A DNA stretch of 64,000 nt, taken from the IMG/VR virus record IMGVR_UViG_3300025816_000009, positions 17,412 to 81,411 of that record, one strand, 5' to 3'. This DNA comes from a virus. A program made the translations under genes and the position numbers. Positions 8,441 to 64,000 of the stretch are shown here, piece by piece; within the stretch, counting starts at the first letter, position 1; the number at the start of each line of letters is the position of its first letter. A model generated the notes under the pieces. That model saw only the letters and a list, made by a program, of their open reading frames with translations. It ran no database searches and was not told the origin of the DNA.

Positions 8441-8446
8441 TTAGGC

Positions 8447-8542
8447 ATGAATCCCGCATGGGAATTAATTTGCCTCTTCGAGTTTGTTGTTTGGATTGGA
8501 TTGATTACCGATTGGTTTCTCCAAGGTAATAGAAGATGGTAG
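8447..8542 (+). CDS. Putative 31-aa membrane peptide
   Basis: Manual translation MNPAWELICLFEFVVWIGLITDWFLQGNRRW. Confidence 0.4.
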   Translation: MNPAWELICLFEFVVWIGLITDWFLQGNRRW

Positions 8543-8546
8543 TTTT

Positions 8547-8723
8547 GGGAATGACCTTAGAAGGCTGAACGGATTAGGACATATTTCGAACTATGCACCG
8601 ACGTTGGAATAACTAACTCCACACCTTAGTCTCATTTCACTCTCTTTCAAGCACGTTATGAGATACCTTCACATTCCCGCCGCCCGTTGTGGTCGCGGGG
8701 CGACATAGGAACTAAGTTCCTAC
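8547..8723 (-). ncRNA. Putative structured RNA R3 (two 5' hairpins plus closed domain family)
   Basis: GTAGGAAC-TTA-GTTCCTAT; GTCGCCC...GGGCGGC; GGGAATG...CATTCCC closing stem. Confidence 0.6.
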
Positions 8724-8747
8724 AAACTAAGCGAAAGGCTCTCCCCT

Positions 8748-8800: not shown

Positions 8801-8823
8801 CTGAAAGCCTGCCTCATTAGTTT

Positions 8824-8934
8824 GTAGGAAGACGCGACACGACATCGACCCGGACGCGCCCTTTACTAGACGCTGTTGAAAAATACTCGCATGAAAGGGA
8901 CATGGATGGCGCTATTCACGCTCCGTCTTCCTAC
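8824..8934 (+). ncRNA. Putative structured RNA R4 (terminal-stem family)
   Basis: First 11 nt GTAGGAAGACG perfectly complementary to CGTCTTCCTAC at 8924-8934; starts 30 nt after TATA. Confidence 0.65.
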
Positions 8935-18600: not shown

Positions 18601-20533
18601 ATCATCAAACGGTTCAAAACAACAATTCAACGCTTCGACTGCCCCCGAAAGTCAATTGCTTGGAGCATTACAGAACTCATCCGTGGCAACTTCCGGCGTT
18701 GATACAAGAAGACCGACATTCACGCTTGGTCGTCCGGCTGTATATATTTGGGGAACTTCTCCATATTTCTCAAATGCTGATTGGTCGAATACCGATACTT
18801 GGCCGTTCAGTACAAATAAACTTGGTTGGGGTGGTTTAGGAAGTGATGTTGGTTATGGAACAGGAACAGCATTAGCAGAGGGAACTCAAACAATTAGAAC
18901 TGTATTCACCGAAGGCGGAATGGAATTACTTTTGAATGGTAATAGCAAAGGTGTTGACACGAACTCGGGTCAGCACATTTGGGGAATGACAATCAAAGCC
19001 TGCGATGTGTTGGCGGCTAACGGAAGTATCAACACACCGACGGTAATTAAGAACAGTAAGGACGAACCGATTACAAACTCAAGTCCGAATCTAGCCGTAT
19101 CTTCTAAAGATTTACAGATTGATTATTTGACGCTTAGACAAATCCCATCTCCGGCCATGCTTCCTTTTGATGTTAGTACGACAACACAGTCCGTTGCTAA
19201 CGTAGCAAAATATCGAAGCCTCGACATCACGGCTGAAAACATTAGCACTAGCAGAGGTATGAGGATTCGAGTCAGTCTTTTCGAACCGCCTGCGGCGACA
19301 GGAATCCCGCAGGCAGAACCAACTACGGCAATTACAGGATTCACAGATTTAGACCCGGGATTCATAGCAGGTGTTGGAAGTGTTGACCTTTCAAACTTGC
19401 CTGCGTCAGCAATAACAAATGGTTTCGTCATCAAATATCATTTCTATATTCCTCATTCAAATGAAACTGATTTACATCCGATTAATTGGAATCAGATTCC
19501 TATCATTAGAAATTGGGAAGTTCAGTATGATTTGAAACCGACGGCAAGTTTGGACGTGATTGGAAACTCATTCAGTGGCGACCTATCGAGTCCAATAGGA
19601 ACAGAAGTGGGCCACATAATCTCGTTCAGAGGAACAGGAATTACAACTGACGTTGATAGATTAATTTCTCAAATCAAGTTTGACTTCGGTGATGGTTCTC
19701 AAACAGGTTGGTTAGATTTTTCCGACCAAACTTTACAAACAACTACTTACGATGTTGCTCACGTTTATTCGAAAGCAGGTTCTTTCAACGCGGTTGTATA
19801 TTCAAAAGATGACAACGGAAATGAGTCTGTAGCAAGTTCCGCAATATCTGTAGTCGTAGCAGAAGTGAAACCTGTCGCCCTATTGAGAGCAATACCTTCC
19901 ATGATAAGAGCCGGACAAGCAACAACTTTTGACGCTTCTGAAAGTTATGTTTTGTCAACTGACCAATCGAGAACAATTGCATCTTATACATTTGATTTCG
20001 GAGATGGCAGTTCAACTGTCTCCGGCTCAAGCCCGAATGCCGACCATACTTATGCAACCGCCGGAGAATATATGGCGACAGTCAGCGCGACTGACAACGC
20101 ATCTCCGGCCAATACATCCGTTGTCGCGAAAGTGGTTGTCAAGATATTACCTGCGACTCTTGTAATACCGTTAAATCTCAACACCAAGCCGGCTTCATTT
20201 GACCGAACAAGAAAAGCGAACTATAGTTCCACGCCTGTTCTTGATGCAGTATATCCGGAAATGAGCGACATGGGTTCGAGAAGTGATGAGTTCAAGATGA
20301 CAGGTTCATTCCTCAAGGCGACAGCGAATGCCGATATTGATTTCATGGAAGAGATTCTAGTCAGTGGCTCTTTAGTCGAGTTCGAATATGAAGATACAGA
20401 TTACAGCGGAAGTGCAGTAAACAAAAAGTTCGTAGGAAGATTAACTGATTTCAACTATCAAAGAGAAGGTGGACGCCATGGCGAAACACCGTGGTCGGCT
20501 ACGCTGATGCGTGAAGCCGGACTAGGAAATTAA
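15683..20533 (+). CDS. Large tail protein with two C-terminal PKD domains
   Basis: Follows tape measure gene; FDFGDG...HVYSKAGSF and FDFGDG...HTYATAGEY. Confidence 0.75.
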   Translation: MAKFTQNITKPFSRLKNGLVELQRWWPAYVKNDGVGGLTVDPVLYHTNFGHLTNADEGSLNSENDTPGVRVEAIKDDGTAAANNDGSNTTFTITISGAGTFSPMCVVSQAGIETKFMLIAPSPDTQANAESVYGESVSSTDRGFGGGTTWLLSQGPYPVFMTVQEFAEMLDTYRHIGSNDGHKKAFLPHAMLGGGALGLGASTALPQIQNDPRVSSSTNWPADGSTASITQSLIRATVFMPLMLDNNQFDKRITNASIDHSTPRDYGTTTNPEFVGYLTADGTGITRYDSDPQGEDSATIRYKDLGYSGDHLQGKVGGWSYFEINKTHNSGTPVKGGMSNPDITADSGPSLAPKYRMRMALACFLKNGTYDITDGNIIPYIYDADRTIGGKNTMTLYQVWNGKDGKGETGNTPQHDCDAQIYPMFDFVQGPVSPAAQGSNAHNSALAEARSWPNLVALDTNKSLTEKINPKFQIVRPNPRRHRLFGVKLTTAGVMELFIEGSGVASYFDFQCREGMPIYITGMTGVLGTGSPNPDFRLDGYQDDAASSTTINATKTTGGWNMNGWWITAGFSAGFDEISTNTYDEIFGDGDSTAVKFQIVRIKTLVNIRPTSEHFYRIGSAASPSTAYVCQGRKPGYMDLVLKLGSTTNPYGIAPMSVGTSMGSPGNTQVRFGGVGSHGSGFSSDTNVPQSENDTYPCRPTVRNAQYPDSSGHFNNDNNYIVRAISPRKDGDDTFSMSPTVSSFGGGSLRVPPPVGWDLPQAYFSWPIYQTGPAGTTVPGSETASRTSRLWLNDTTGAYPVRNVNVDYGSFSKWGHRGLSIAMLSYMDSTTGRHAWDYIKPVSTSGSWLYGRNRPWPAHERCGTRFGYGPSLLETAKVVNTNGISYDGWQDYNANGGNRIEAGEETTKIGVSEIGCSPVWLDMEMRAFVPVSENRMTLIEFDNGISYPVLGRHSMITGGITNDAQFGLGFYPKSSNGSKQQFNASTAPESQLLGALQNSSVATSGVDTRRPTFTLGRPAVYIWGTSPYFSNADWSNTDTWPFSTNKLGWGGLGSDVGYGTGTALAEGTQTIRTVFTEGGMELLLNGNSKGVDTNSGQHIWGMTIKACDVLAANGSINTPTVIKNSKDEPITNSSPNLAVSSKDLQIDYLTLRQIPSPAMLPFDVSTTTQSVANVAKYRSLDITAENISTSRGMRIRVSLFEPPAATGIPQAEPTTAITGFTDLDPGFIAGVGSVDLSNLPASAITNGFVIKYHFYIPHSNETDLHPINWNQIPIIRNWEVQYDLKPTASLDVIGNSFSGDLSSPIGTEVGHIISFRGTGITTDVDRLISQIKFDFGDGSQTGWLDFSDQTLQTTTYDVAHVYSKAGSFNAVVYSKDDNGNESVASSAISVVVAEVKPVALLRAIPSMIRAGQATTFDASESYVLSTDQSRTIASYTFDFGDGSSTVSGSSPNADHTYATAGEYMATVSATDNASPANTSVVAKVVVKILPATLVIPLNLNTKPASFDRTRKANYSSTPVLDAVYPEMSDMGSRSDEFKMTGSFLKATANADIDFMEEILVSGSLVEFEYEDTDYSGSAVNKKFVGRLTDFNYQREGGRHGETPWSATLMREAGLGN

Positions 20534-20534
20534 G

Positions 20535-20725
20535 TGTAGGTGGGAGCGACCCATAGAACTCTCGACAGGTAATCAAGGCGGGTCATCGTCCCTTTTCCTC
20601 AACACCAAGCCGCACGACGACCGCATACACTGACGCCTTCGTGGTTCTCCTACTTTGTAAAAGTCCGCGGGGGGTTAGTCGCCGTAGGGTTCGTACCTTT
20701 CGCGGTGTCCGTCGCGTCCTCTTAC
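20535..20725 (-). ncRNA. Putative structured RNA R6
   Basis: Starts GTAAGAGGACGCGAC 30 nt after TATA (20755); 3' GTCGCTCC complementary; ORF-free. Confidence 0.55.
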
Positions 20726-20785
20726 AAACTAATGACAGAGCCTTTTGGTTATAAACCTTTTCATTGAGAGTTTAGTAATATTGAG

Positions 20786-20993
20786 GTAAGAGAAGCGGGC
20801 AATTACAAACCTTCTTGGAATCTCTTCCTTTTCTCGGTTTCCTCATCCTGTCCCGTCTTCTCTTAGGTTGTAAGATTTCGCGTTGCTGTTGGTCCTAGCC
20901 TTTTAGTGATATTTTCCATCATTCTATTCAAGTTTTTACACTCTGTTTCTTTCACTACCCTAACTTTCACGAATCCGCGCCGCGTCCTCTTAC
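20786..20993 (-). ncRNA. Putative RNA R7 (purine-rich, terminal stem)
   Basis: Starts GTAAGAGGACGCGG, ends CCGCTTCTCTTAC; first 13 nt identical to R6. Confidence 0.55.
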
Positions 20994-21016
20994 AAACTAA
21001 ACGAGTCGTCTTTTGG

Positions 21017-21069
21017 TTATAAACCTTTTTATTGAGAGTTCTTTACATTGATAGTTCGAAACACTTATA
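21017..21069. promoter_or_regulatory. Bidirectional class-E cassette (one-sided copy also at 20749-20784)
   Basis: TTATAAACCTTTTT-ATTGA-N11-ATTGA-N6-GAAACA-CTTATA. Confidence 0.75.
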
Positions 21070-29164: not shown

Positions 29165-29250
29165 ATACTGTCGTGTACTGCTTTGCCTATAAAGGTTTCG
29201 TTCTATCAATGTTAACACATATCAATGAAAAGATTAGAATAATTTTGTAA

Positions 29251-29502
29251 GGGCAACAGTATGCCTCTGTTCAGATTCGCCGGTTTGGCGGCCGCATATT
29301 CCACACAATCCCGGTAAGGATTTCGTTCCCAACCACGAGAACTCAAATGTTTTATAGATAGGCTACTGACCACCATTCTCTCACGTTAGTTCATTTTATA
29401 ATCAAGTCTAACACCAAGCAATTCCTTTCGGACCTCTTAGAGTGCGTTCCCCCTATCCTGTTGCCCGGGCGTCAAAGCGCCCAAGAGAAGCCACCTTCCC
29501 TC
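29251..29502 (-). ncRNA. Putative structured RNA R8 (two 5' hairpins plus closed domain family)
   Basis: GAGGGAAG-GTGG-CTTCTCTT; GGGCG-N6-CGCCC; GGGCAACAG...CTGTTGCCC; many internal hairpins. Confidence 0.65.
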
Positions 29503-29525
29503 AAACCTAACGAACAGCCTTTGGC

Positions 29526-30640: not shown

Positions 30641-32434
30641 GTGGATAGGAAGTTAGAGCGCTATCATCGGATAGTCCGTGAGTCTCCAAAAGAAACAATT
30701 GACCCACCTGCCGGCTTGTCAGAAGCAATAGAACAAATGTCGAAAGACAAGAGAAGGCCACGAACTGCGATAGCAAGATGGGTCAGCAAACAGTGGGCGG
30801 AATTGCATTACGAAAGAATACAAGGTCAACCCTTGCCCGAGGCTTCTGCGGCTATTGGGATGGTTCAGAAGGAAACAATCGAGAGGCCAACTCACTTCCC
30901 AACTCATTTCGGACTTGGGTTAGTCCCGTCAACATTATCAATTGGCGGTTGGCGACAGGATAAGACATACACTTCATGTTATACATCTTTGAGCGTTCCT
31001 AGGCCATTCGACCCGACACTCCATGGAACTATCGCCGGAACTGTTGGGTTCAGTTATATGGGCTACCAAGGAAATCCCGACCCGGCTCAATATGACATAA
31101 CCACTAGAAGAGGCGGTGGTCCTCGTGGTGGTTTCAGTTGGACGACAGGACCAACAGAAGGAAATTATCCTACTAGCGTTCTTCCTCAACCGACTTTCAA
31201 TCTCGGCGTATTGGGATTCAGTAATGGCGGATGGAATCCCGAAGGTCTTCAATGGACGAATAGACCCAAGCAAGTTCGACTTCAAGGTCTTAGAAATAAT
31301 TCGGTTCATCGTGTGATGTTCGCCCGTTCTCGAAAAGTAATGTTCAGAAACTTGTACGGTCCAATATCAGAAGACGAAGCGACACCAAAAGCGCCGAATG
31401 TTTTGATTAACGGAACAAAGCCAATTTCCGGAATCAAAAACTTGCGAATAAAACGCCGATATAATGCACCTGCCGAGGCGACTATTGACCTCAATAGTGT
31501 GGCGGGAAGACGGTCCGGTATTGTGAAACTTGGCGACACGGTGCAAGTTTTTGCATCTCCCCGGGAGTGGGATAATCCACCACTAATTTTTACAGGATTC
31601 GTTTCAGACATTGAAGAAGATTCTACCACGGTTTCAATAATCTGCCTAGATGCTCTAGGGTATTTGACGAAAGAAGTTCTTTTGACTAATCCAACATACC
31701 AAGAAACCGACGCGGGTGTGGTTTGTAGAGATATTATCGCAGGTTCTTCATACGGTCCGCCGCTAGGAAAAATCTCAACACAAACCCGAGTTATACTTCC
31801 CTCAAGTTTGGATTTGTCTAAGAAAAGTCGTCTCGATGCAATCCAAACAATACTCGATATTGTCAACAACACACCCAACCAAGTCATACTTCAAGCAGAG
31901 GTTAACGGGTACATTAATCTTGTGAGATTGAGGGAAGTTGATGATACAAGTTTGAAACCTTACATCGCCGGGAGACTGCCAAAAACTTCTGTCCCACAGG
32001 ATTTGTACCCGACTCAAATAACTAGAGATGAGGGAGATTTAGACTTCGTAAATAAAGTGTCAATCACAAACTCTGAAATCGGTTTGATAGCAACCGAACC
32101 TACAACACCTGTTCAAAATCCTGTTCATATTATTGTCGAAGAAACTGCGGCGACTGACGTTCCGACAGCCAAGTTCTTTGCTCAACAAATATTGAATCAA
32201 CAAGGTCGAGCAGGTTCTCGTTGGAATGTTCAAGCGCTACCGGAGAGGTTTGATATTATGCCGGGTCAAGTAGTTGACTTCGCTTCCACTGATGGCGGTC
32301 TAGCAGGCAGGCAAAGAGTATTCGATGTATCAATAAAATACAGCCCGAGCGACGTATCAATGACGATGACTGTTGGTCGTCAAGCCCCCGATTTGGTTGC
32401 CATGTTGAGATATGCAACAGGCGTTTCGCAATAA
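30641..32434 (+). CDS. Baseplate hub/tail-tip protein
   Basis: IFTGFVSDIEE...ICLDAL, PGQVVDF...RVFDVSIKY pattern. Confidence 0.6.
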   Translation: MDRKLERYHRIVRESPKETIDPPAGLSEAIEQMSKDKRRPRTAIARWVSKQWAELHYERIQGQPLPEASAAIGMVQKETIERPTHFPTHFGLGLVPSTLSIGGWRQDKTYTSCYTSLSVPRPFDPTLHGTIAGTVGFSYMGYQGNPDPAQYDITTRRGGGPRGGFSWTTGPTEGNYPTSVLPQPTFNLGVLGFSNGGWNPEGLQWTNRPKQVRLQGLRNNSVHRVMFARSRKVMFRNLYGPISEDEATPKAPNVLINGTKPISGIKNLRIKRRYNAPAEATIDLNSVAGRRSGIVKLGDTVQVFASPREWDNPPLIFTGFVSDIEEDSTTVSIICLDALGYLTKEVLLTNPTYQETDAGVVCRDIIAGSSYGPPLGKISTQTRVILPSSLDLSKKSRLDAIQTILDIVNNTPNQVILQAEVNGYINLVRLREVDDTSLKPYIAGRLPKTSVPQDLYPTQITRDEGDLDFVNKVSITNSEIGLIATEPTTPVQNPVHIIVEETAATDVPTAKFFAQQILNQQGRAGSRWNVQALPERFDIMPGQVVDFASTDGGLAGRQRVFDVSIKYSPSDVSMTMTVGRQAPDLVAMLRYATGVSQ

Positions 32435-32456
32435 TCGGAGTTTTTATCCCCATCAT

Positions 32457-32485
32457 TAGATTCCCCCCCTTTAGGGGGGAATCTA
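32457..32485. repeat. 12-bp perfect inverted repeat at module boundary
   Basis: TAGATTCCCCCC-CTTTA-GGGGGGAATCTA. Confidence 0.7.
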
Positions 32486-32726
32486 GTCTAAAGAATCGAA
32501 CTGACTAACCCCCTAAGAGACACATAGTATAGTTGAACTGTATATACATCAGAGTATGAGTATGTTCGTTTAATTAATTAAGGTGGGATTAGCAGGGAAT
32601 GATATGGGCGCGGACACTCTTTTCCTTGAAAGCCCTGTTGTTGGGGCGTCGCGCCCATGGGGTTTTGTGTTATTTCTCCCCATTAATATGCGCCCCGATG
32701 ATAGGCAACAAGCGACGGTGAAATGA

Positions 32727-32936
32727 ATGGACTTTTTAGAATTAGAAACTACGACAGGATTAACGATGATTCGAATTGATGACATTTCAGCAATCACACA
32801 CATGGAATATTGTTGGGAGATTCATCTTCAATCGGGAACTATATTCAGAACAAACGACGAGAACAATCGTCTCCGTGAATGGATGCACCGAAGTCAAGGC
32901 GGAACAATGTCTTACAACGGCATTCCGAAGAAATGA
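32727..32936 (+). CDS. Small hypothetical protein
   Basis: IRIDDISAI...EIHLQSG small beta-domain pattern. Confidence 0.55.
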   Translation: MDFLELETTTGLTMIRIDDISAITHMEYCWEIHLQSGTIFRTNDENNRLREWMHRSQGGTMSYNGIPKK

Positions 32937-32942
32937 GGAATC

Positions 32943-33064
32943 TGCGGTCAAGAGCCAACACCCGCCCCCCGTCGGGGGTGGAGCAAGCCAACTCTGATTT
33001 ACGGGTTTACCCTACAGGTGGAAGGCCGGCCGGTGAAGTCGCCTATTCCGGCTGACTCTATCGC
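32943..33064 (-). ncRNA. Putative structured RNA R10
   Basis: 5' AGAGTCAGC pairs with 3' GTTGGCTCT using G-U (strand-specific); CCCCC-GAC-GGGGG hairpin. Confidence 0.6.
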
Positions 33065-33122
33065 ATTTGACCCTGTAGCCGTTTAGTTATAAACCTTTTC
33101 ATTGATAACTCAAGACATTGAT

Positions 33123-33205
33123 GAGGCGGGGGAGCAACCCCCCATTTAGAATCAAGCCCGCAACCATGCGTGGGAATCGAACCTCTCGTAGCCCTCTTCT
33201 TCCTC
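33123..33205 (-). ncRNA. Putative small RNA R11 with T-loop-like motif
   Basis: GAGG...CCTC ends; GGTTCGATTCC; CGCA-TGGT-TGCG; GGGGG-N6-CCCCC. Confidence 0.5.
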
Positions 33206-33228
33206 AATCTAAGCGAACAGCCTTTGAG

Positions 33229-33281
33229 TTATAAATCTTTTTATTGATAACTCAAGACATTGATAGAACAAAACCTTTATA
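33229..33281. promoter_or_regulatory. Bidirectional class-E cassette (duplicate one-sided copy 33087-33121)
   Basis: ATTGATAACTCAAGACATTGAT identical in both copies. Confidence 0.75.
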
Positions 33282-33304
33282 TGCTGGAAGCCGTAGGACA
33301 GAAC

Positions 33305-33541
33305 ATGAGCGGCGAGACGACATTCACAACAGGCGAGACATACAGAGCAACATCAGTTTGCGATTCAAACTGTCATTGGTACTTTACAGTAGAGCGCCGA
33401 ACAAACGCATCAGTATGGGTTTCAGAGCGTGGAGAAGAAGCAGTTCGCCGAGCAGTAAGAAATTACAATGGCGAAGAGTATTTCATGCCTTTCGGAACTT
33501 ACTCAATGGCCGCTCATTGTTCAGCGGGCAACGTCGCTTAA
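33305..33541 (+). CDS. Hypothetical protein (start 33305)
   Basis: ATG 29 nt after TATA; FTTGETYRATSVCDSNC...PFGTYSMA. Confidence 0.6.
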   Translation: MSGETTFTTGETYRATSVCDSNCHWYFTVERRTNASVWVSERGEEAVRRAVRNYNGEEYFMPFGTYSMAAHCSAGNVA

Positions 33542-44592: not shown

Positions 44593-45460
44593 GACAGCGA
44601 AATATGACAAGATAATCGAAAACGAAGAATCGCTTGCGGCGTTCTTTGACGGCGAACCGAACCTTGGTCAACTTTTGGGATTGTACAGATACTCGAAAAA
44701 CTTGATTGAAGAAATGGCACTTTCGGGAACGAGACAGGATATGCCGGACCAAGATGAGTTCCTATTGACTTCAATAGACCCATGGAAGTTAGAGAAAAAA
44801 CTTGGGGAAATGATTCTGAACGAAATGGTTAGCCGACATCGAAAAGTTGACCATCGAGAACATTGGACGATGTGCGCGTATCTCGGAGATTTAGGATTCG
44901 AAGTTGTTCATCTCAATACAGGAGAAGGAGATGTATCAAGTCGAAAAGTCAGTATCGAGAGAAAAGAGGACGACCTCGTTCCGTCTCTGTTCGATGGCAG
45001 AAGACTAAGACAACTAAGCGCCATGAGAGAAACTGCTGAATATTCATTTTTGATAGTTTCGAAATCATATACGGAAATCAAAAAGGGATTACAAGAGCGA
45101 CAAGTTTCAGATAAAATCTTCACGTCGTTCATAGCAAGTTTGGCCGCTGTTGGCTATCCGCCGATGTTTATTGATGACAGATACGACGCCGCTCAAGTGA
45201 TGCACCAATTAATCGGGAAGATTGAAGATGACAATCATCGACTCTATGTTCCCCGACCCAAAGGCGCTAACCCAACTGATTTCCGAAATGCTATGGTCGA
45301 GGCTTTGCCGAAGGTTGGATTCAAAACACGCCGAAAATTAGTAGCCAAGTTTCCGAGCATAGCAAAATTAGTAGCCGCGAGTGTTGATGATATACAAGCG
45401 ATTGAAGGAATTGGTCAGAAGACTGCCGAAAAGATTTGGCATTGTCTTCATGATGAATAA
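44579..45460 (+). CDS. ERCC4/XPF-family nuclease with HhH domain
   Basis: VDHRE, GD, IERKEEDDL..S..DGR...QL; IEGIGQKTAEKI. Confidence 0.85.
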   Translation: MVANKTAKYDKIIENEESLAAFFDGEPNLGQLLGLYRYSKNLIEEMALSGTRQDMPDQDEFLLTSIDPWKLEKKLGEMILNEMVSRHRKVDHREHWTMCAYLGDLGFEVVHLNTGEGDVSSRKVSIERKEDDLVPSLFDGRRLRQLSAMRETAEYSFLIVSKSYTEIKKGLQERQVSDKIFTSFIASLAAVGYPPMFIDDRYDAAQVMHQLIGKIEDDNHRLYVPRPKGANPTDFRNAMVEALPKVGFKTRRKLVAKFPSIAKLVAASVDDIQAIEGIGQKTAEKIWHCLHDE

Positions 45461-45464
45461 CACC

Positions 45465-45944
45465 GGGGCTTTCAACTCTTCCTACTCAATGAGGCATCCT
45501 TCTTCCCTAGTGTTTTTATGAGAACAGTGCCTAAGTTTCGAGTCGGATGTTCTCAAGTTTTTCTTGTTTGGGTATGCTGTATGACCACTTATTGCCTCGG
45601 CTTCTTTATCCGCTAGTGGTTCAAAGGGTTGGGAATGGGATAGCCCGTCTGCTTAGGTGCGTGAGAATTACCTCGTTGCCCCCTATCCATCGCTACTTTC
45701 TTGCCTAATTTATCGTGGTCTGTTCATTACTATTCCATAGTGTTGTTTCCCTTCAAGGGGTTCTACCCAAGAAGTCTCTCTTCCGCTTCAATCACTCGCT
45801 GTTTTTCGCTTTAGCCGCATATGCCTATGTCTTTGTGATTTCGAAGAGAGGACAAGTCCTCGCCGCCGAGCCTTCCTCGGAAGCATCTTCGCTCATTCCC
45901 GGGAGTCCGCCTTTCGACGTCTCCCATGAGAGGCAACCTCTCAC
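45465..45944 (-). ncRNA. Putative large structured RNA R14 (about 480 nt)
   Basis: GTGAGAGG-TTG-CCTCTCAT; GGGAG..GAAA..CTCCC; GGGAATG...CATTCCC; further stems; cassette at 45969-46007. Confidence 0.65.
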
Positions 45945-46044
45945 AAACTAATGAGGCAGGCTTCCACCTATAAAGGTTTCGGAACATCAATGTCTTGCTA
46001 TATCAATAGTTTACTTTTATTAAGGTGGGCATTGAGGATAGTTC

Positions 46045-47064
46045 ATGTGGACTGAAACCTATAGGCCGAATACGTTAGATGATGTAATTGGTCAAGAACA
46101 CATCACTCGCCGGATTAGATACATGATAGATGAACTTCACAAGAGTGGAGATGATGGCGCTTGGCCTCATATGATGTTCGCCGGACCTGCCGGTGTTGGA
46201 AAAACTTCCGTGGCTGTTGCCATGATGCGTTCTCTGTTCGGTGAAGATTGGTCGATGAATTATATTGAATTGAATGCTTCCGACTCGAGAAGTATCAATG
46301 ACATTAGAACTACAGTCAAGGACTTCTCAAGAAAAGGAGTCATGGGCGTTTACTTGGTTGATGGGAAACCAAAACCAATTCCATTCAATGTTGTATTCCT
46401 AGACGAATGCGACAATCTGACACCCGATGCTCAATCGGCTCTCCGTAGAATCATGGAACGGTTTTCGAAACAGACTCGATTTGTTTTGTCTTGTAATTAT
46501 CCGCATCAGATTATTGACCCGATTAAAGACAGGTGTGCTTTCAGCGATACTAGATTCGGACCTATTCCGGCCAAGACAATTTATGGCGCTCTAAAGAACG
46601 TAGTAGCCAAAGAAGAAATCGAGATTACATCCGACGCTCTGAAAGCAGTCGCTAAACATTCCAATGGTTCAATGCGAAAAGGCTTGAACTTCTTATTTTC
46701 AGCAACAAGAGTTCCGGGCGAAGCAACAATCGAGGATGTCAATGAATTGATTGGTGAACTGAATAATGACAGAATGAAACAATTGCTCGGCTTGGCGTTC
46801 GAAGCGTCAACTGAAACTGATTCCAAACAACTTAGGATATGGAGACAGATGGATTCGATGGTCGATTCATTTGCTGACAAGGGTTTGAGTGGCGCAGAGA
46901 TTCTTGACGCCGTTTACAAAACTGCTTCCGAAGAAGACATTCCACCGAAGATTGCTAGAAATATTTATGCACATCTAGGAGAAGCCATATTCCATTGTGC
47001 CGCCGCCCAAGATGATATATTGGCGGTTAAGACATTCATAAGGAGATTGAGTATAGATGCCTAG
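46045..47064 (+). CDS. rfcS: Replication factor C small subunit
   Basis: WTETYRP, GPAGVGKT, IELNASD, FLDECD, AQSALRRIME, SCNY. Confidence 0.93.
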   Translation: MWTETYRPNTLDDVIGQEHITRRIRYMIDELHKSGDDGAWPHMMFAGPAGVGKTSVAVAMMRSLFGEDWSMNYIELNASDSRSINDIRTTVKDFSRKGVMGVYLVDGKPKPIPFNVVFLDECDNLTPDAQSALRRIMERFSKQTRFVLSCNYPHQIIDPIKDRCAFSDTRFGPIPAKTIYGALKNVVAKEEIEITSDALKAVAKHSNGSMRKGLNFLFSATRVPGEATIEDVNELIGELNNDRMKQLLGLAFEASTETDSKQLRIWRQMDSMVDSFADKGLSGAEILDAVYKTASEEDIPPKIARNIYAHLGEAIFHCAAAQDDILAVKTFIRRLSIDA

Positions 47065-55283: not shown

Positions 55284-56852
55284 ATGCCTTGGGCTTCGCC
55301 TGCTCCAATGTTGGAGCAGTTTGTTGGGACTTTCACAAAGCCCGGCGCGAAGCGTATTGAGAAATTAGAATACCGAAAAAAGAAAATTGACATCGTAGAT
55401 GATTATCGCTTGAGATGGCGAGATACAGTTCGAAAAGGAAAATATCAGAACGGCGCAGGTTGGTTGACTTCATTGGGTCAAGATGATATGCAGTTTTTTA
55501 TTGACGAAGGAAGGAAACTTGTTGACGATTGTCCTAAAGCAAACTTGGATGGCTACTTTTCATCTCCGCTAAGATTGGTTCGCTCTAAGAAAAATGTGAG
55601 CGATAATTTTCCGTATGGAATATCTCCGCGCTTGATTAACATCGTTGATTATATTACTACCAATTCTAAGAAATGGGAATCCGGTTGGATGAAACATTTT
55701 TCTTATTCATATCCTAAAGGTTTCGAAGATGATTGTTTTCACAATAGAACTGATAAACGCCAATGCGGTTTGTATGAAGTGTTCAGAGTCATAACTACAG
55801 ACAACGACAACGCATATTGCATTCGGCAATTATACTCGATGGGTGTCGGCTTGAAATCAGTTATGAAAGAAAATCATCAACTGAATGCCGAACTTGCTCG
55901 GCTTGTTAACGGTCGTGGTTATAATTTTCATCCGGAAGCCAAAATAGACGACGTTTGTAATTTACACCTTTTAGAAACTGATACTGTCGGTCTAAGGTCA
56001 GCCCCATTTATTTATCCGGGTTTAGTAAAACCAAATGGCGTTCGCTCTGTATTCAAGAACTTGAAAGAGAAGATGATGAATGAGTTTCCGTTGGAAGATT
56101 TCGAGGAAGAAAACTTGTCAGAAGGTCAAGATTTGTTCGCTATTCCACTCAATTTGATTACAATGAAAACAGGAGATATGTCGCCAATCGCGATAAGAAA
56201 ACAGAAGGTTGACTTTGGCGATTATATTTGTTTAATTGGCGATATTGAAAATGAAGGATATGAAATAGGCGTTTCAACTAAGCAGAGAGTTGACAGAAGA
56301 GTTCACGACGTTGTGATTTCTCCGACTCGAGATAGTGGCTTTATTCATTTGAGTCAAATGGACGGTGCGTTCGGTACTAACCGTAAATCACATTTACAAA
56401 AAGAGAGTCTGAACTTTTATTCCAAAGAAGCAATCGAGAGAGAAAGATTGTCGGGCGGAAGCCTGCCTTCTAAACCTACTCGAGTAATGGAAAATATGAC
56501 AGCAGAAGAAATGGTGAATATGATGACAGGAATAAGTGTAGCAGATGCCGAAGGAATGGATATTGGGAAGACAACAGAGGACATAACTGACCCGAATAGT
56601 CCGATAAAAATAGAGTTCATTCCGACTTGGAAGGACAACAGGAAAACGATTGAGATAAAGAAAGGAAGTGCATTTTCAGATTATGTGAGATGTTATGTAT
56701 GCAATCAAAAATATCTGATTAGTTTGCCTGCGAATAACAAAATAGAAGAAATGAAATGTACCGTTTGCCCGGCGACCGATGGGTTAAAGGTGGGTCATCT
56801 AGTCGAAGGAAACCCGGGAATAGTGGTCAGTGGTTCGCGCCCATACAGATAG
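55284..56852 (+). CDS. Hypothetical protein with C-terminal Zn ribbon
   Basis: CYVC...CTVC. Confidence 0.6.
   Translation: MPWASPAPMLEQFVGTFTKPGAKRIEKLEYRKKKIDIVDDYRLRWRDTVRKGKYQNGAGWLTSLGQDDMQFFIDEGRKLVDDCPKANLDGYFSSPLRLVRSKKNVSDNFPYGISPRLINIVDYITTNSKKWESGWMKHFSYSYPKGFEDDCFHNRTDKRQCGLYEVFRVITTDNDNAYCIRQLYSMGVGLKSVMKENHQLNAELARLVNGRGYNFHPEAKIDDVCNLHLLETDTVGLRSAPFIYPGLVKPNGVRSVFKNLKEKMMNEFPLEDFEEENLSEGQDLFAIPLNLITMKTGDMSPIAIRKQKVDFGDYICLIGDIENEGYEIGVSTKQRVDRRVHDVVISPTRDSGFIHLSQMDGAFGTNRKSHLQKESLNFYSKEAIERERLSGGSLPSKPTRVMENMTAEEMVNMMTGISVADAEGMDIGKTTEDITDPNSPIKIEFIPTWKDNRKTIEIKKGSAFSDYVRCYVCNQKYLISLPANNKIEEMKCTVCPATDGLKVGHLVEGNPGIVVSGSRPYR

Positions 56853-60241: not shown

Positions 60242-64000
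<3,759 letters not shown>

Follow-up and report, generated by a model that had tools for sequence, protein, structure and literature searches.

We analyzed a 64,000-nucleotide (nt) stretch of viral DNA (the window), which spans bases 17412-81411 of the 81,411-nt virus record IMGVR_UViG_3300025816_000009, rated complete by CheckV. Its replication genes are separated at one point by a gap of 584 nt (45461-46044), reaching from the stop codon of an ERCC4/helix-hairpin-helix (HhH) nuclease gene to the ATG of an RFC-small/AAA+ clamp loader gene. An earlier note, written from the letters of the sequence, had taken this gap for the site of a structured antisense RNA free of open reading frames (ORFs). 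We conclude that the gap probably holds an independent gene for a structured noncoding RNA of ~460 nt, here called RNA-1. The gene would run from ~45944 to ~45485 on the minus strand, and its product is probably a stable particle with a protein-binding 5′ platform. The observation is confirmed and its interpretation is supported: expression and covariation now stand behind what had been a guess from sequence only.

Expression of RNA-1 in marine RNA libraries

Part of the segment 45200-46300 was found in 20 of the 23 listed public runs, 19 of these being recorded as RNA, with 12 studies represented; none of the listed runs contained half of the words of this segment. We mapped contigs from four runs (X1, X2, X3, and X8) belonging to four studies. 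Run X3 yielded a single 382-nt contig, with a depth of 79.9, over 45565-45940, and nothing else in 44600-47000. Run X8 yielded a 448-nt contig, with a depth of 290.4, over 45485-45932; the sole other contig lay inside RFC and had a depth of 4.1. Only low-depth pieces (2.2-3.5) were recovered from X1 and X2. The RNA-1 stretch was more abundant than its neighbors in two RNA libraries, and DNA carry-over does not account for the 70-fold change in depth at the gene borders. The two high-depth contigs agreed in 14 substitutions and 6 small indels, which coincide with the differences of the metagenome locus L007; the RNA gene is thus available in a natural strain variant. RNA-1 appears to be made at a high level during infection.

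The promoter and predicted start of RNA-1

In the minus-strand direction, the gap has at its right end, in order, two ATTGA(T) boxes, GAAACC-TTTATA (45974-45969), a 21-mer, and then GUGAGAGG. The boxes are putative factor-binding sites. Judged by sequence, the tract resembling a B recognition element (BRE) and the TTTATA (45969-45980, minus strand) form a promoter of the type common to the genome's other promoters: the cassette is present many times in the window, and its AAACCTTTATA element recurs in the window's promoter repeats (families D7, D8, D11, and D12). Protein-gene promoters of the same genome place 24 nt between the last A of TTTATA and the A of ATG (family D12). Because we applied this spacing to RNA-1, its start is put at about G 45944, in agreement with the right-hand ends of the RNA contigs (45940 and 45932). 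The 5′ end would lie at ~45944, with the first hairpin of the RNA at the very 5′ end. The direction of the promoter, together with G-U pairs in the RNA, points to the minus strand. The earlier note had proposed an antisense unit with its own promoter, and both parts of this proposal hold: the promoter is a minus-strand BRE/TATA promoter, and high-depth contigs occur only over 45485-45940.

The same note had remarked on a promoter-proximal sequence that recurs elsewhere. This sequence, a 21-mer (AAGCCTGCCTCATTAGTTTGT), is indeed identical to 8805-8825 (+), with 0.00 matches expected. However, the position of the TATA box and the contig ends suggest that it belongs to the promoter, almost wholly upstream of the RNA, and not to the RNA. 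Two unrelated RNAs have the 21-mer in common because it spans the interval from TATA box to start site.

Covariation in the 5′ module and in the body

Homologs of the clamp loader and the nuclease led to 23 loci, among which we compared 11 junctions between both genes. Gap length at these junctions ranged from 171 to 623 nt, and some of the content was coding-like. Loci with an RFC at least 73% identical keep the minus-strand promoter and the RNA (L007, L008, L009, L012, L013, and L001, with copies L010, L011, and L018). Searches for further relatives gave 1 locus for RFC in viral contigs, none for RFC in cellular genomes, and 0 for a pattern of the RNA 3′ domain; an ortholog-type pattern search gave no locus beyond one already known. 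In L008 (2607-3000; RFC 92% identical), the same 5′ and 3′ RNA parts are present and ~37 replacement bases form a local hairpin, which is able to pair with the 3′ arm of hairpin 2.

All orthologs have a 5′ module with the same layout: (U)GU, a 6- to 7-bp hairpin (hairpin 1), (A/G/U)UG, a second hairpin (hairpin 2), and GGGAA. Among 7 aligned sequences, 97.6% of 84 cells were paired and 8 of the 12 pairs changed on both sides; with the partners slid, 33.7-54.8% of cells were paired. The values for 14 matches were 98.1% of cells and 9 of 12 pairs, in an alignment that was fitted to the covariance model and includes one probably false match (56764-56828). The strand assignment is supported by the module's G-U pairs, which exist only if the minus strand is read.

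The covariance model of the 5′ module (R1) matched two other places in the window (Table 1). It gave 6 further matches (E ≤ 0.0013) in 14 promoter-pattern loci of related viral contigs and no match in the genome's first 17.5 kb. The module was present in 4 of 5 closer fragments and in 0 of 5 complete, more distant relatives of ~81 kb. One further R1 match, at 56764-56828 (+) (16.2 bits; E, ~0.01), was rejected as probably false: it lies inside a protein-coding frame, and hairpin 1 is missing. We concluded that RNA-1 is a member of a virus-specific multicopy family, with at least 3 copies in the 81-kb genome plus copies in related viral contigs. The ORF-free islands 8441-8726 (−) and 29236-29505 (−) are those of the other two-hairpin module RNAs; their bodies are unrelated, and close orthologs are found in L037/L039 and L035.

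For the body, the earlier note had named six helices, all of which are present. In plus-strand coordinates, their arms lie at 45866 and 45876 (CCGAG/CTCGG), 45776 and 45843 (CTCTCTTC/GAAGAGAG), 45790 and 45835 (AATCAC/GTGATT), 45638 and 45683 (GGATAG/CTATCC), 45584 and 45615 (ACCACT/AGTGGT), and 45519 and 45548 (TGAGAACA/TGTTCTCA). Perfect 6-nt complementary arm pairs numbered 39, compared with 20.0 ± 5.6 in mononucleotide shuffles, none of 300 of which reached 39. There were 2 pairs of 8-nt arms (1.04 expected), a number reached by 79 of 300 shuffles.

Three of the helices changed in a compensatory manner in L007 or L008 (Table 1). The AAUCAC/GUGAUU helix has two fully compensatory pairs in L007. 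The 3′ hairpin is a 10-bp UGAGAGAGCA/UGCUCUCUCA in L007 and UGAGAGAGCA/UGUUCUCUCA in L008; an A-U pair has become G-C (L007) or G-U (L008), and the loop is the same but for one base deleted in both. This hairpin was compared by direct reading with no formal count, MAFFT gap placement being poor there for the window. Altogether, RNA-1 and L007 show 21 differences (18 aligned positions plus 3 inserted bases), of which 5 preserve a predicted pair and 3 disrupt one; all others fall in predicted loops. Conserved loops of RNA-1 are GCGAGUGA..GAAGCG, CUAUGGAAUAG, and AUCCGAC.

We also derived a structure from the ortholog group L001/L009/L012 by using RNAalifold, which predicted 90 pairs in 15 helices. 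Eleven pairs changed on both sides, compared with 3.8 ± 1.6 in shuffles (0 of 500 reached 11) and 0 to 2 when partners were slid; the structure comes from the very three sequences tested, which favors the fold somewhat. A comparison of homologs for covariation, named as a check in the earlier note, thus revealed compensatory changes in the 5′ module (8/12 pairs), in three body helices (L007/L008), and in the ortholog group (11/90 pairs).

Site differences from L007 amounted to 4.6% for RNA-1, 3.5% for ERCC4, and 1.6% for RFC, with one residue change per protein. Because the gene differences are nearly all silent, the rate per silent site is well above 4.6%. RNA-1 therefore appears to be under moderate constraint, changing more slowly than the silent sites of the genes, with its changes clustered in loops and compensated stems.

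A possible closing helix

The minimum-energy fold of 45485-45944 pairs AAUGAG (45892-45897) with CUCAUU (45488-45493), 3 nt from the end of the deepest contig. In the L001/L009/L012 fold, the GGGAAGAGGA tract that follows hairpin 2 has its pairing partner, UCCUCUUC(C/U)C, at the 3′ end, and the body is closed by a predicted 10-bp helix. Two compensatory changes were seen in the equivalent closing helix of L035/L033, an orthologous pair of another family member. A blind complementarity search of RNA-1 returned a local best run that was not at the 3′ end. The predicted closing helix of RNA-1 is tentative, and we keep it only where orthologs back it.

From these features we propose how RNA-1 might act. 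Transcription would start at G 45944, and hairpin 1, at the first bases, would protect the 5′ end. The closing helix would tuck the 3′ end against hairpin 2 and so protect the 3′ end. The 5′ platform (hairpin 1, (A/G/U)UG, hairpin 2, and GGGAA) would bind one common viral or host protein, and the fast-evolving bodies would carry the specific activity, as a decoy, scaffold, or guide.

Comparison with known RNAs

The earlier note recognized no known RNA signature, and database searches agree, with no usable Rfam match in the window or in five related loci. Rfam 15 (4,227 models, including GOLLD, ROOL, RNase P, signal recognition particle [SRP] RNA, group I/II introns, small ribozymes, and IMES motifs) gave 0 matches at gathering score in the 64,000-nt window. 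At an E value of ≤10, the segment 45300-46150 gave only two C/D small nucleolar RNA models, scoring 15.3 and 12.2 bits where the thresholds are 35 and 37; at an E value of ≤1, the five related loci, totaling 38,410 nt, gave 0 matches. ARAGORN found 0 tRNA or transfer-messenger RNA genes in the window. No similar DNA was found among deposited phages. Within the 81-kb genome, blastn-short returned chance-level matches to RNA-1 only (best, 14 nt on the same strand) and no long complementarity to viral genes. The idea of a sponge was rejected: there is no repeated short motif, no 3-mer exceeds a z score of 3.6, and GGA is outside the eight most over-represented. Pfam scans of 30 window proteins identified no reverse transcriptase and no TnpB/IscB-like family.

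GOLLD and ROOL are large structured noncoding RNAs of phages and prophages. RNA-1 is like them in being hundreds of nucleotides long, virus-carried, ORF-free, highly expressed, and rich in covarying helices, with no assigned biochemical function. It differs in that it matches neither model, is smaller (~310-460 nt), and belongs to an archaeal virus with a BRE/TATA promoter; moreover, RNAs of its type occur as several paralogs per genome with only the 5′ platform in common. Stable viral RNAs that retain their fold despite sequence drift include the phi29 packaging RNA (pRNA), the TMERs of murine gammaherpesvirus 68 (MHV68), and the HSURs of herpesvirus saimiri; TMERs and HSURs are sets of several paralogs with one constant module and the rest different. 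These RNAs have no homology to RNA-1, and they differ in host domain, transcription machinery, and size; we do not imply a link of RNA-1 to packaging or to host factors. The pRNA family is part of the Rfam set that gave no match. In the Alu-type 5′ domain of archaeal SRP RNA, two hairpins stand side by side at the 5′ end, and the strand after them pairs with the distant 3′ part. This topology equals that of the RNA-1 5′ module plus the predicted closing strand. However, there was no Rfam SRP match at an E value of ≤10, the linker is (A/G/U)UG and not a UGUNR turn, and the hairpin loops are not conserved.

The nearest published parallel is a 489-bp palindrome-associated transposable element (PATE) of HRTV-DL1 (Halorubrum tailed virus DL1). 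Like the RNA-1 gap, it is an ORF-free piece of an archaeal tailed virus. It is reported to be strongly transcribed, almost only in reverse, and is considered likely to act as a noncoding RNA (PMC10544981). As described there, the PATE is transposable and common to the host, whereas RNA-1 has a single-copy body, its own promoter cassette, and structure-preserving evolution. Another study describes Tan1, an abundant noncoding RNA of 229 nt from contigs assigned to marine group II archaea (PMC5069720). By that description, Tan1 is like RNA-1 in being abundant, structured, unclassified, and found in marine metatranscriptomes on uncultured euryarchaeal-type contigs; its paper also reports collagen-like proteins, and the virus of RNA-1 encodes a collagen-like repeat protein. 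The lengths differ (229 nt versus ~460 nt for RNA-1), and the two RNAs, which may be kin, were compared by description only.

The main texts on marine group II archaeal viruses that we consulted contain no mention of noncoding RNAs, intergenic regions, or promoters. Our literature search found no work on noncoding transcripts of Poseidoniales viruses, and noncoding RNA of Thalassoarchaea only in PMC5069720; literature on IMES contained nothing relevant to RNA-1. By these comparisons, RNA-1 is not a member of any described family, Tan1 having been compared by description only.

Points against the proposed RNA gene

Several observations weigh against a structured RNA gene of the kind proposed. 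The contigs give neither strand, exact ends, nor true level; high-depth contigs came from only two of the four runs, both with the L007 strain variant; and a U-tract terminator is absent at the observed 3′ end. Conservation of the RNA sequence is patchy: in L008, the central ~250 nt are replaced by ~37 other bases, and much of the RNA-1 sequence may be dispensable. The gaps of distant relatives differ, being 236 nt in L014 and 171 nt in L017 and consisting of other sequence in L015 and L016. The three paralogs are alike in the 5′ module only; their body alignments scored 31, 27, and 23, and the corresponding shuffles averaged 31.5, 28.0, and 27.6. The closing helix of RNA-1 itself has only 6 bp, and in a blind search 8- to 10-bp helices were found in 23 to 177 of 200 downstream shuffles. 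No RNA-binding family was identified among the 30 window proteins scanned with Pfam, several large proteins being without any family. The proposed way of acting is drawn by analogy only.

The fold itself is subject to similar reservations. Three of the six helices listed earlier have no informative variation and are neither supported nor contradicted. For 45461-45965 (minus strand), the folding energy gave a z score of −1.46, and 8 of 100 shuffles folded as well; for 45485-45944 (minus strand), the values were −1.32 and 9 of 100. The plus strand gave a z score of −0.30, with 35 of 100 shuffles folding as well. The claim of a structured RNA of ~480 nt is therefore borne out by covariation, with three of six helices compensated and an RNA of ~460 nt, but not by folding energy. 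Folding energy alone is not significant, and the real support for the fold is the covariation in natural variants.

Coding potential and alternative explanations

The longest frames in the gap have 78 amino acids (aa) on the plus strand and 59 and 39 aa on the minus strand. Six-frame peptides from six orthologous gaps included none conserved across ortholog groups, the best cross-group match being ≤30.4 bits; the best match involving the window had 23.9 bits over 26 aa, in the region of the promoter and 5′ module. Compared with L007, RNA-1 has three 1-nt deletions plus inserted bases at two sites, and the 10 substitutions within the 78-aa frame fall 4, 2, and 4 times on codon positions 1, 2, and 3 (counted manually). 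The gap shows no kept frame, third-position bias, or indels in threes, as would be expected of protein-coding sequence. Hence, the stretch in the replication cluster is ORF-free, as the earlier note had it: the 584-nt gap has no conserved ORF, and strain differences include 1-nt indels. We find it barely credible that RNA-1 is a decayed gene or serves as mRNA for a tiny protein, such as that of a leaderless 39-codon GUG frame at 45825-45944 (−). The virus's protein genes do appear leaderless or nearly so (family D12), the GUG of this frame is exactly at the predicted first base, and in L008 there is a frame about as long, with its first 15 codons DNA-identical. However, the 5′-terminal frames of other orthologs and paralogs have 1 to 35 codons with unrelated sequences, some without a start codon; the changes in hairpins 1 and 2 keep pairing and not amino acids; and peptide matches across groups are absent.

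The main rival to a structured RNA gene is that transcription of the unit is what matters. The unit would be an insulator or a cis-antisense unit, its strong leftward promoter working against the end of the upstream plus-strand operon, by polymerase collision or by pairing of the 3′ part of the RNA with the 3′ untranslated end of the ERCC4 message, and the fold would serve only stability or stopping. All three family copies and other ORF-free islands lie opposite neighboring genes, at operon boundaries beside two-way promoter cassettes. The plus strand has T5 runs inside the RNA gene (45513-45517 and 45558-45562), where termination of the ERCC4 message would create an overlap of at least 30 nt with the RNA; the rapid turnover of body and length would also fit a role with little sequence demand. 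Collision, however, needs neither the compensatory changes that keep many helices deep in the body nor the conserved 5′ platform common to the paralogs, and high-depth coverage ceases at 45485, leaving 25 nt to the ERCC4 stop codon. We consider this explanation unlikely, since selection on internal helices and a common platform do not fit transcription alone.

It is more difficult still to see RNA-1 as the cargo of a shuffling or mobile promoter cassette similar to a miniature inverted-repeat transposable element (MITE) or a PATE, that is, a selfish or neutral transcribed insert, and we regard this as improbable. Junction content does differ among relatives, from 171 to 623 nt and in part coding-like; a second copy of the promoter-proximal 21-mer exists elsewhere; the island's 3′ end (~45470-45495, GCCTCATTGAGTAGGAAGAG) resembles the start region of the 8805 (+) RNA; and L035 carries a different RNA type at one locus. 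Against this, the body is single-copy in the 81-kb genome (best other match, 14 nt), with only the promoter part repeated; terminal inverted repeats and target duplications, as in a PATE or MITE, were not found; and structure-preserving substitutions and slower-than-silent change point to selection on the RNA. An origin of replication might also be served by such a transcript. ColE1 RNA II and the origin transcripts of phage T4 are R-loop or primer RNAs, and RNA-1, which lies among primase-polymerase, nuclease, clamp loader, and PolB genes, is strong, noncoding, and purine-rich (A+G, 60.6%). Paralogs with the same platform are found at 8726 and 29505 in regions of structural and tail genes, however, and a stable discrete RNA with a conserved, tertiary-looking architecture is unlike primer transcripts. 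Site-specific origin-like repeats were not found, the ATTGA boxes being present at many promoters. A role as a replication-origin transcript is therefore very improbable, and a gene for a structured RNA is the explanation that we favor.

The virus, neighboring genes, and other promoter-driven units

The coordinates of the features discussed are collected in Table 1.

Table 1. Positions of RNA-1, its parts, its promoter, its paralogs, and the flanking genes in the window
Feature	Position	Strand	Basis or remark
RNA-1, transcribed noncoding RNA, ~460 nt	45485..45944	−	High-depth contigs (45485-45940) in two RNA libraries from two studies; flanks 0-4.1
Hairpin 1 of 5′ module, U-GAGAGG / CCUCUC-A	45927..45943	−	Alignment A4, columns 5-21; 7 pairs, 4 changed on both sides, 7 sequences
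Hairpin 2 of 5′ module, GGGAG ... CUCCC	45901..45925	−	Alignment A4, columns 23-48; 5 pairs, 4 changed on both sides
GGGAAUGAG tract after hairpin 2	45892..45900	−	Its AAUGAG is a possible 5′ strand of the closing helix
Helix AAUCAC/GUGAUU around variable loop	45790..45840	−	L007 and RNA contigs: 45792 T>C and 45793 C>T with 45838 A>G and 45837 G>A
Helix ACCACU/AGUGGU	45584..45620	−	L008 has CCGCC/GGUGG: one pair compensatory (U-A to C-G), one turned G-U
3′ hairpin UGAGAACA/UGUUCUCA, conserved loop UCCGACU..GAAACUUAGGCAC	45519..45555	−	Both arms lengthened together in L007 and L008
21-mer AAGCCTGCCTCATTAGTTTGT, TATA-to-start stretch	45943..45963	−	Identical to 8805-8825 (+); 2 exact matches in window, 0.00 expected
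TATA box TTTATA of RNA-1 promoter	45969..45974	−	Read from sequence
BRE-like purine-rich GAAACC, directly upstream of TATA box	45975-45980	−	Read from sequence
Two ATTGA(T) boxes upstream of TATA box: CATTGAT (45987-45993) and TATTGAT (46003-46009)	45987..46009	−	Repeat family D8
5′ module of paralog in another ORF-free island	8666..8726	−	In R1 training set, 53.6 bits; hairpin / AUG / hairpin / GGGAAUG
5′ module of third paralog	29454..29505	−	R1 match outside training set, 28.1 bits, E 5.6e-07
ERCC4 nuclease, C-terminal helix-hairpin-helix	44579..45460	+	Pfam ERCC4, E 3.6e-05; HHH_5, E 4.5e-10; upstream neighbor
Clamp loader (RFC small subunit-like) AAA+ ATPase	46045..47064	+	Pfam AAA, E 8.9e-14; RCF1-5-like lid, E 6.8e-07; downstream neighbor

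Besides the two flanking genes, the neighbors of RNA-1 include primase-polymerase and PolB (family B polymerase) genes. Pfam assigned window proteins to structural families (portal, prohead protease, HK97-type capsid, and tape measure), modification families (Mom-like, methyltransferases, and glycosyltransferase), and replication families (XPD-like helicase, PD-(D/E)XK nuclease, primase-polymerase, ERCC4+HhH nuclease, RFC-like clamp loader, and family B polymerase); a MoxR-type ATPase with a vWA partner is also encoded. The nearest PolB among deposited phages is that of haloarchaeal tailed viruses, at ~25% identity. The carrier thus appears to be an uncultivated marine archaeal head-tail virus with archaeal-type promoters. 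Its predicted gene content looks magrovirus-like (portal, protease, HK97-type capsid, and tape measure plus PolB, RFC, primase-polymerase, helicase, and nucleases). Magroviruses, which are viruses of marine group II archaea, combine a head-tail structural module with a near-complete archaeal-type replication module, according to their description (PMC5434244). A large collagen-like frame at 60242-64000 (+), with 9-nt-period GGnCCnACn repeats (Gly-Pro-Thr/Gln triplets), runs past the window end. In Red Sea metatranscriptomes, collagen-like disordered proteins are reported to be expressed at a very high level, the contigs in question being assigned to marine group II archaea (PMC5069720).

The promoter type of RNA-1 also precedes other ORF-free units. 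A second promoter-driven set comprises 8805-8930 (+), 20533-20755 (−), and 20784-21023 (−); its members start GUA(A/G)GA(A/G)GACGCG after the same CATTAGTTTGT promoter-proximal sequence, and the one at 8805 (+) has the exact 21-mer of RNA-1. A low-depth X2 contig joins the promoter-proximal 37 nt (45943-45979) to 105 nt of other sequence, which begins AGGAAGUCGG (minus strand) and resembles the second RNA set. This contig presumably comes from a related virus in which a promoter of this type drives another RNA. The 3′ edge of the RNA-1 island, GCCTCATTGAGTAGGAAGAG at 45470-45495 (−), is similar to the first bases of the 8805 (+) RNA together with its promoter-proximal sequence; a tandem unit or recombination between cassettes may have left it behind. 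A further unit of the same promoter type, 33100-33235 (−), begins GAGGAAGAAGAGGGCUACGAGAGGUUCGAUUCCCAC. Its GGUUCGAUUCC resembles a tRNA T-arm, yet ARAGORN reported no tRNA in the window. At the junction of the 597-aa and 611-aa (helicase) genes, L035 has a member of the two-hairpin family (2226-2520, +), whereas the window has a different RNA type (32434-33468); cassette cargo has been exchanged between these close relatives. A scan of cellular genomes for the promoter pattern returned 33 single matches, from one Asgard archaeon and otherwise unrelated bacteria, where an estimated ~17 would arise by chance; we treated these as chance matches that offer no clue to the host.

Implications

The marine archaeal virus groups are known from metagenomes only and have been annotated gene by gene. 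Functional RNAs of archaeal viruses have, to our knowledge, hardly been described. We tentatively raise the possibility that marine archaeal viruses encode a new class of large functional RNAs, consisting of RNA-1 and its paralogs, with a constant docking platform and variable effector bodies (guides, decoys, self-assembling scaffolds, or catalysts). Such RNAs might be among the most abundant viral transcripts in surface-ocean RNA and perhaps include RNAs credited to archaeal hosts. RNA-1 is short enough for chemical probing and cryo-electron microscopy, and the 5′ module is simple enough to serve as a protein bait. If these RNAs are real effectors, they would constitute a missing layer in the infection program of abundant ocean viruses and would account for unassigned, very abundant reads in marine metatranscriptomes.

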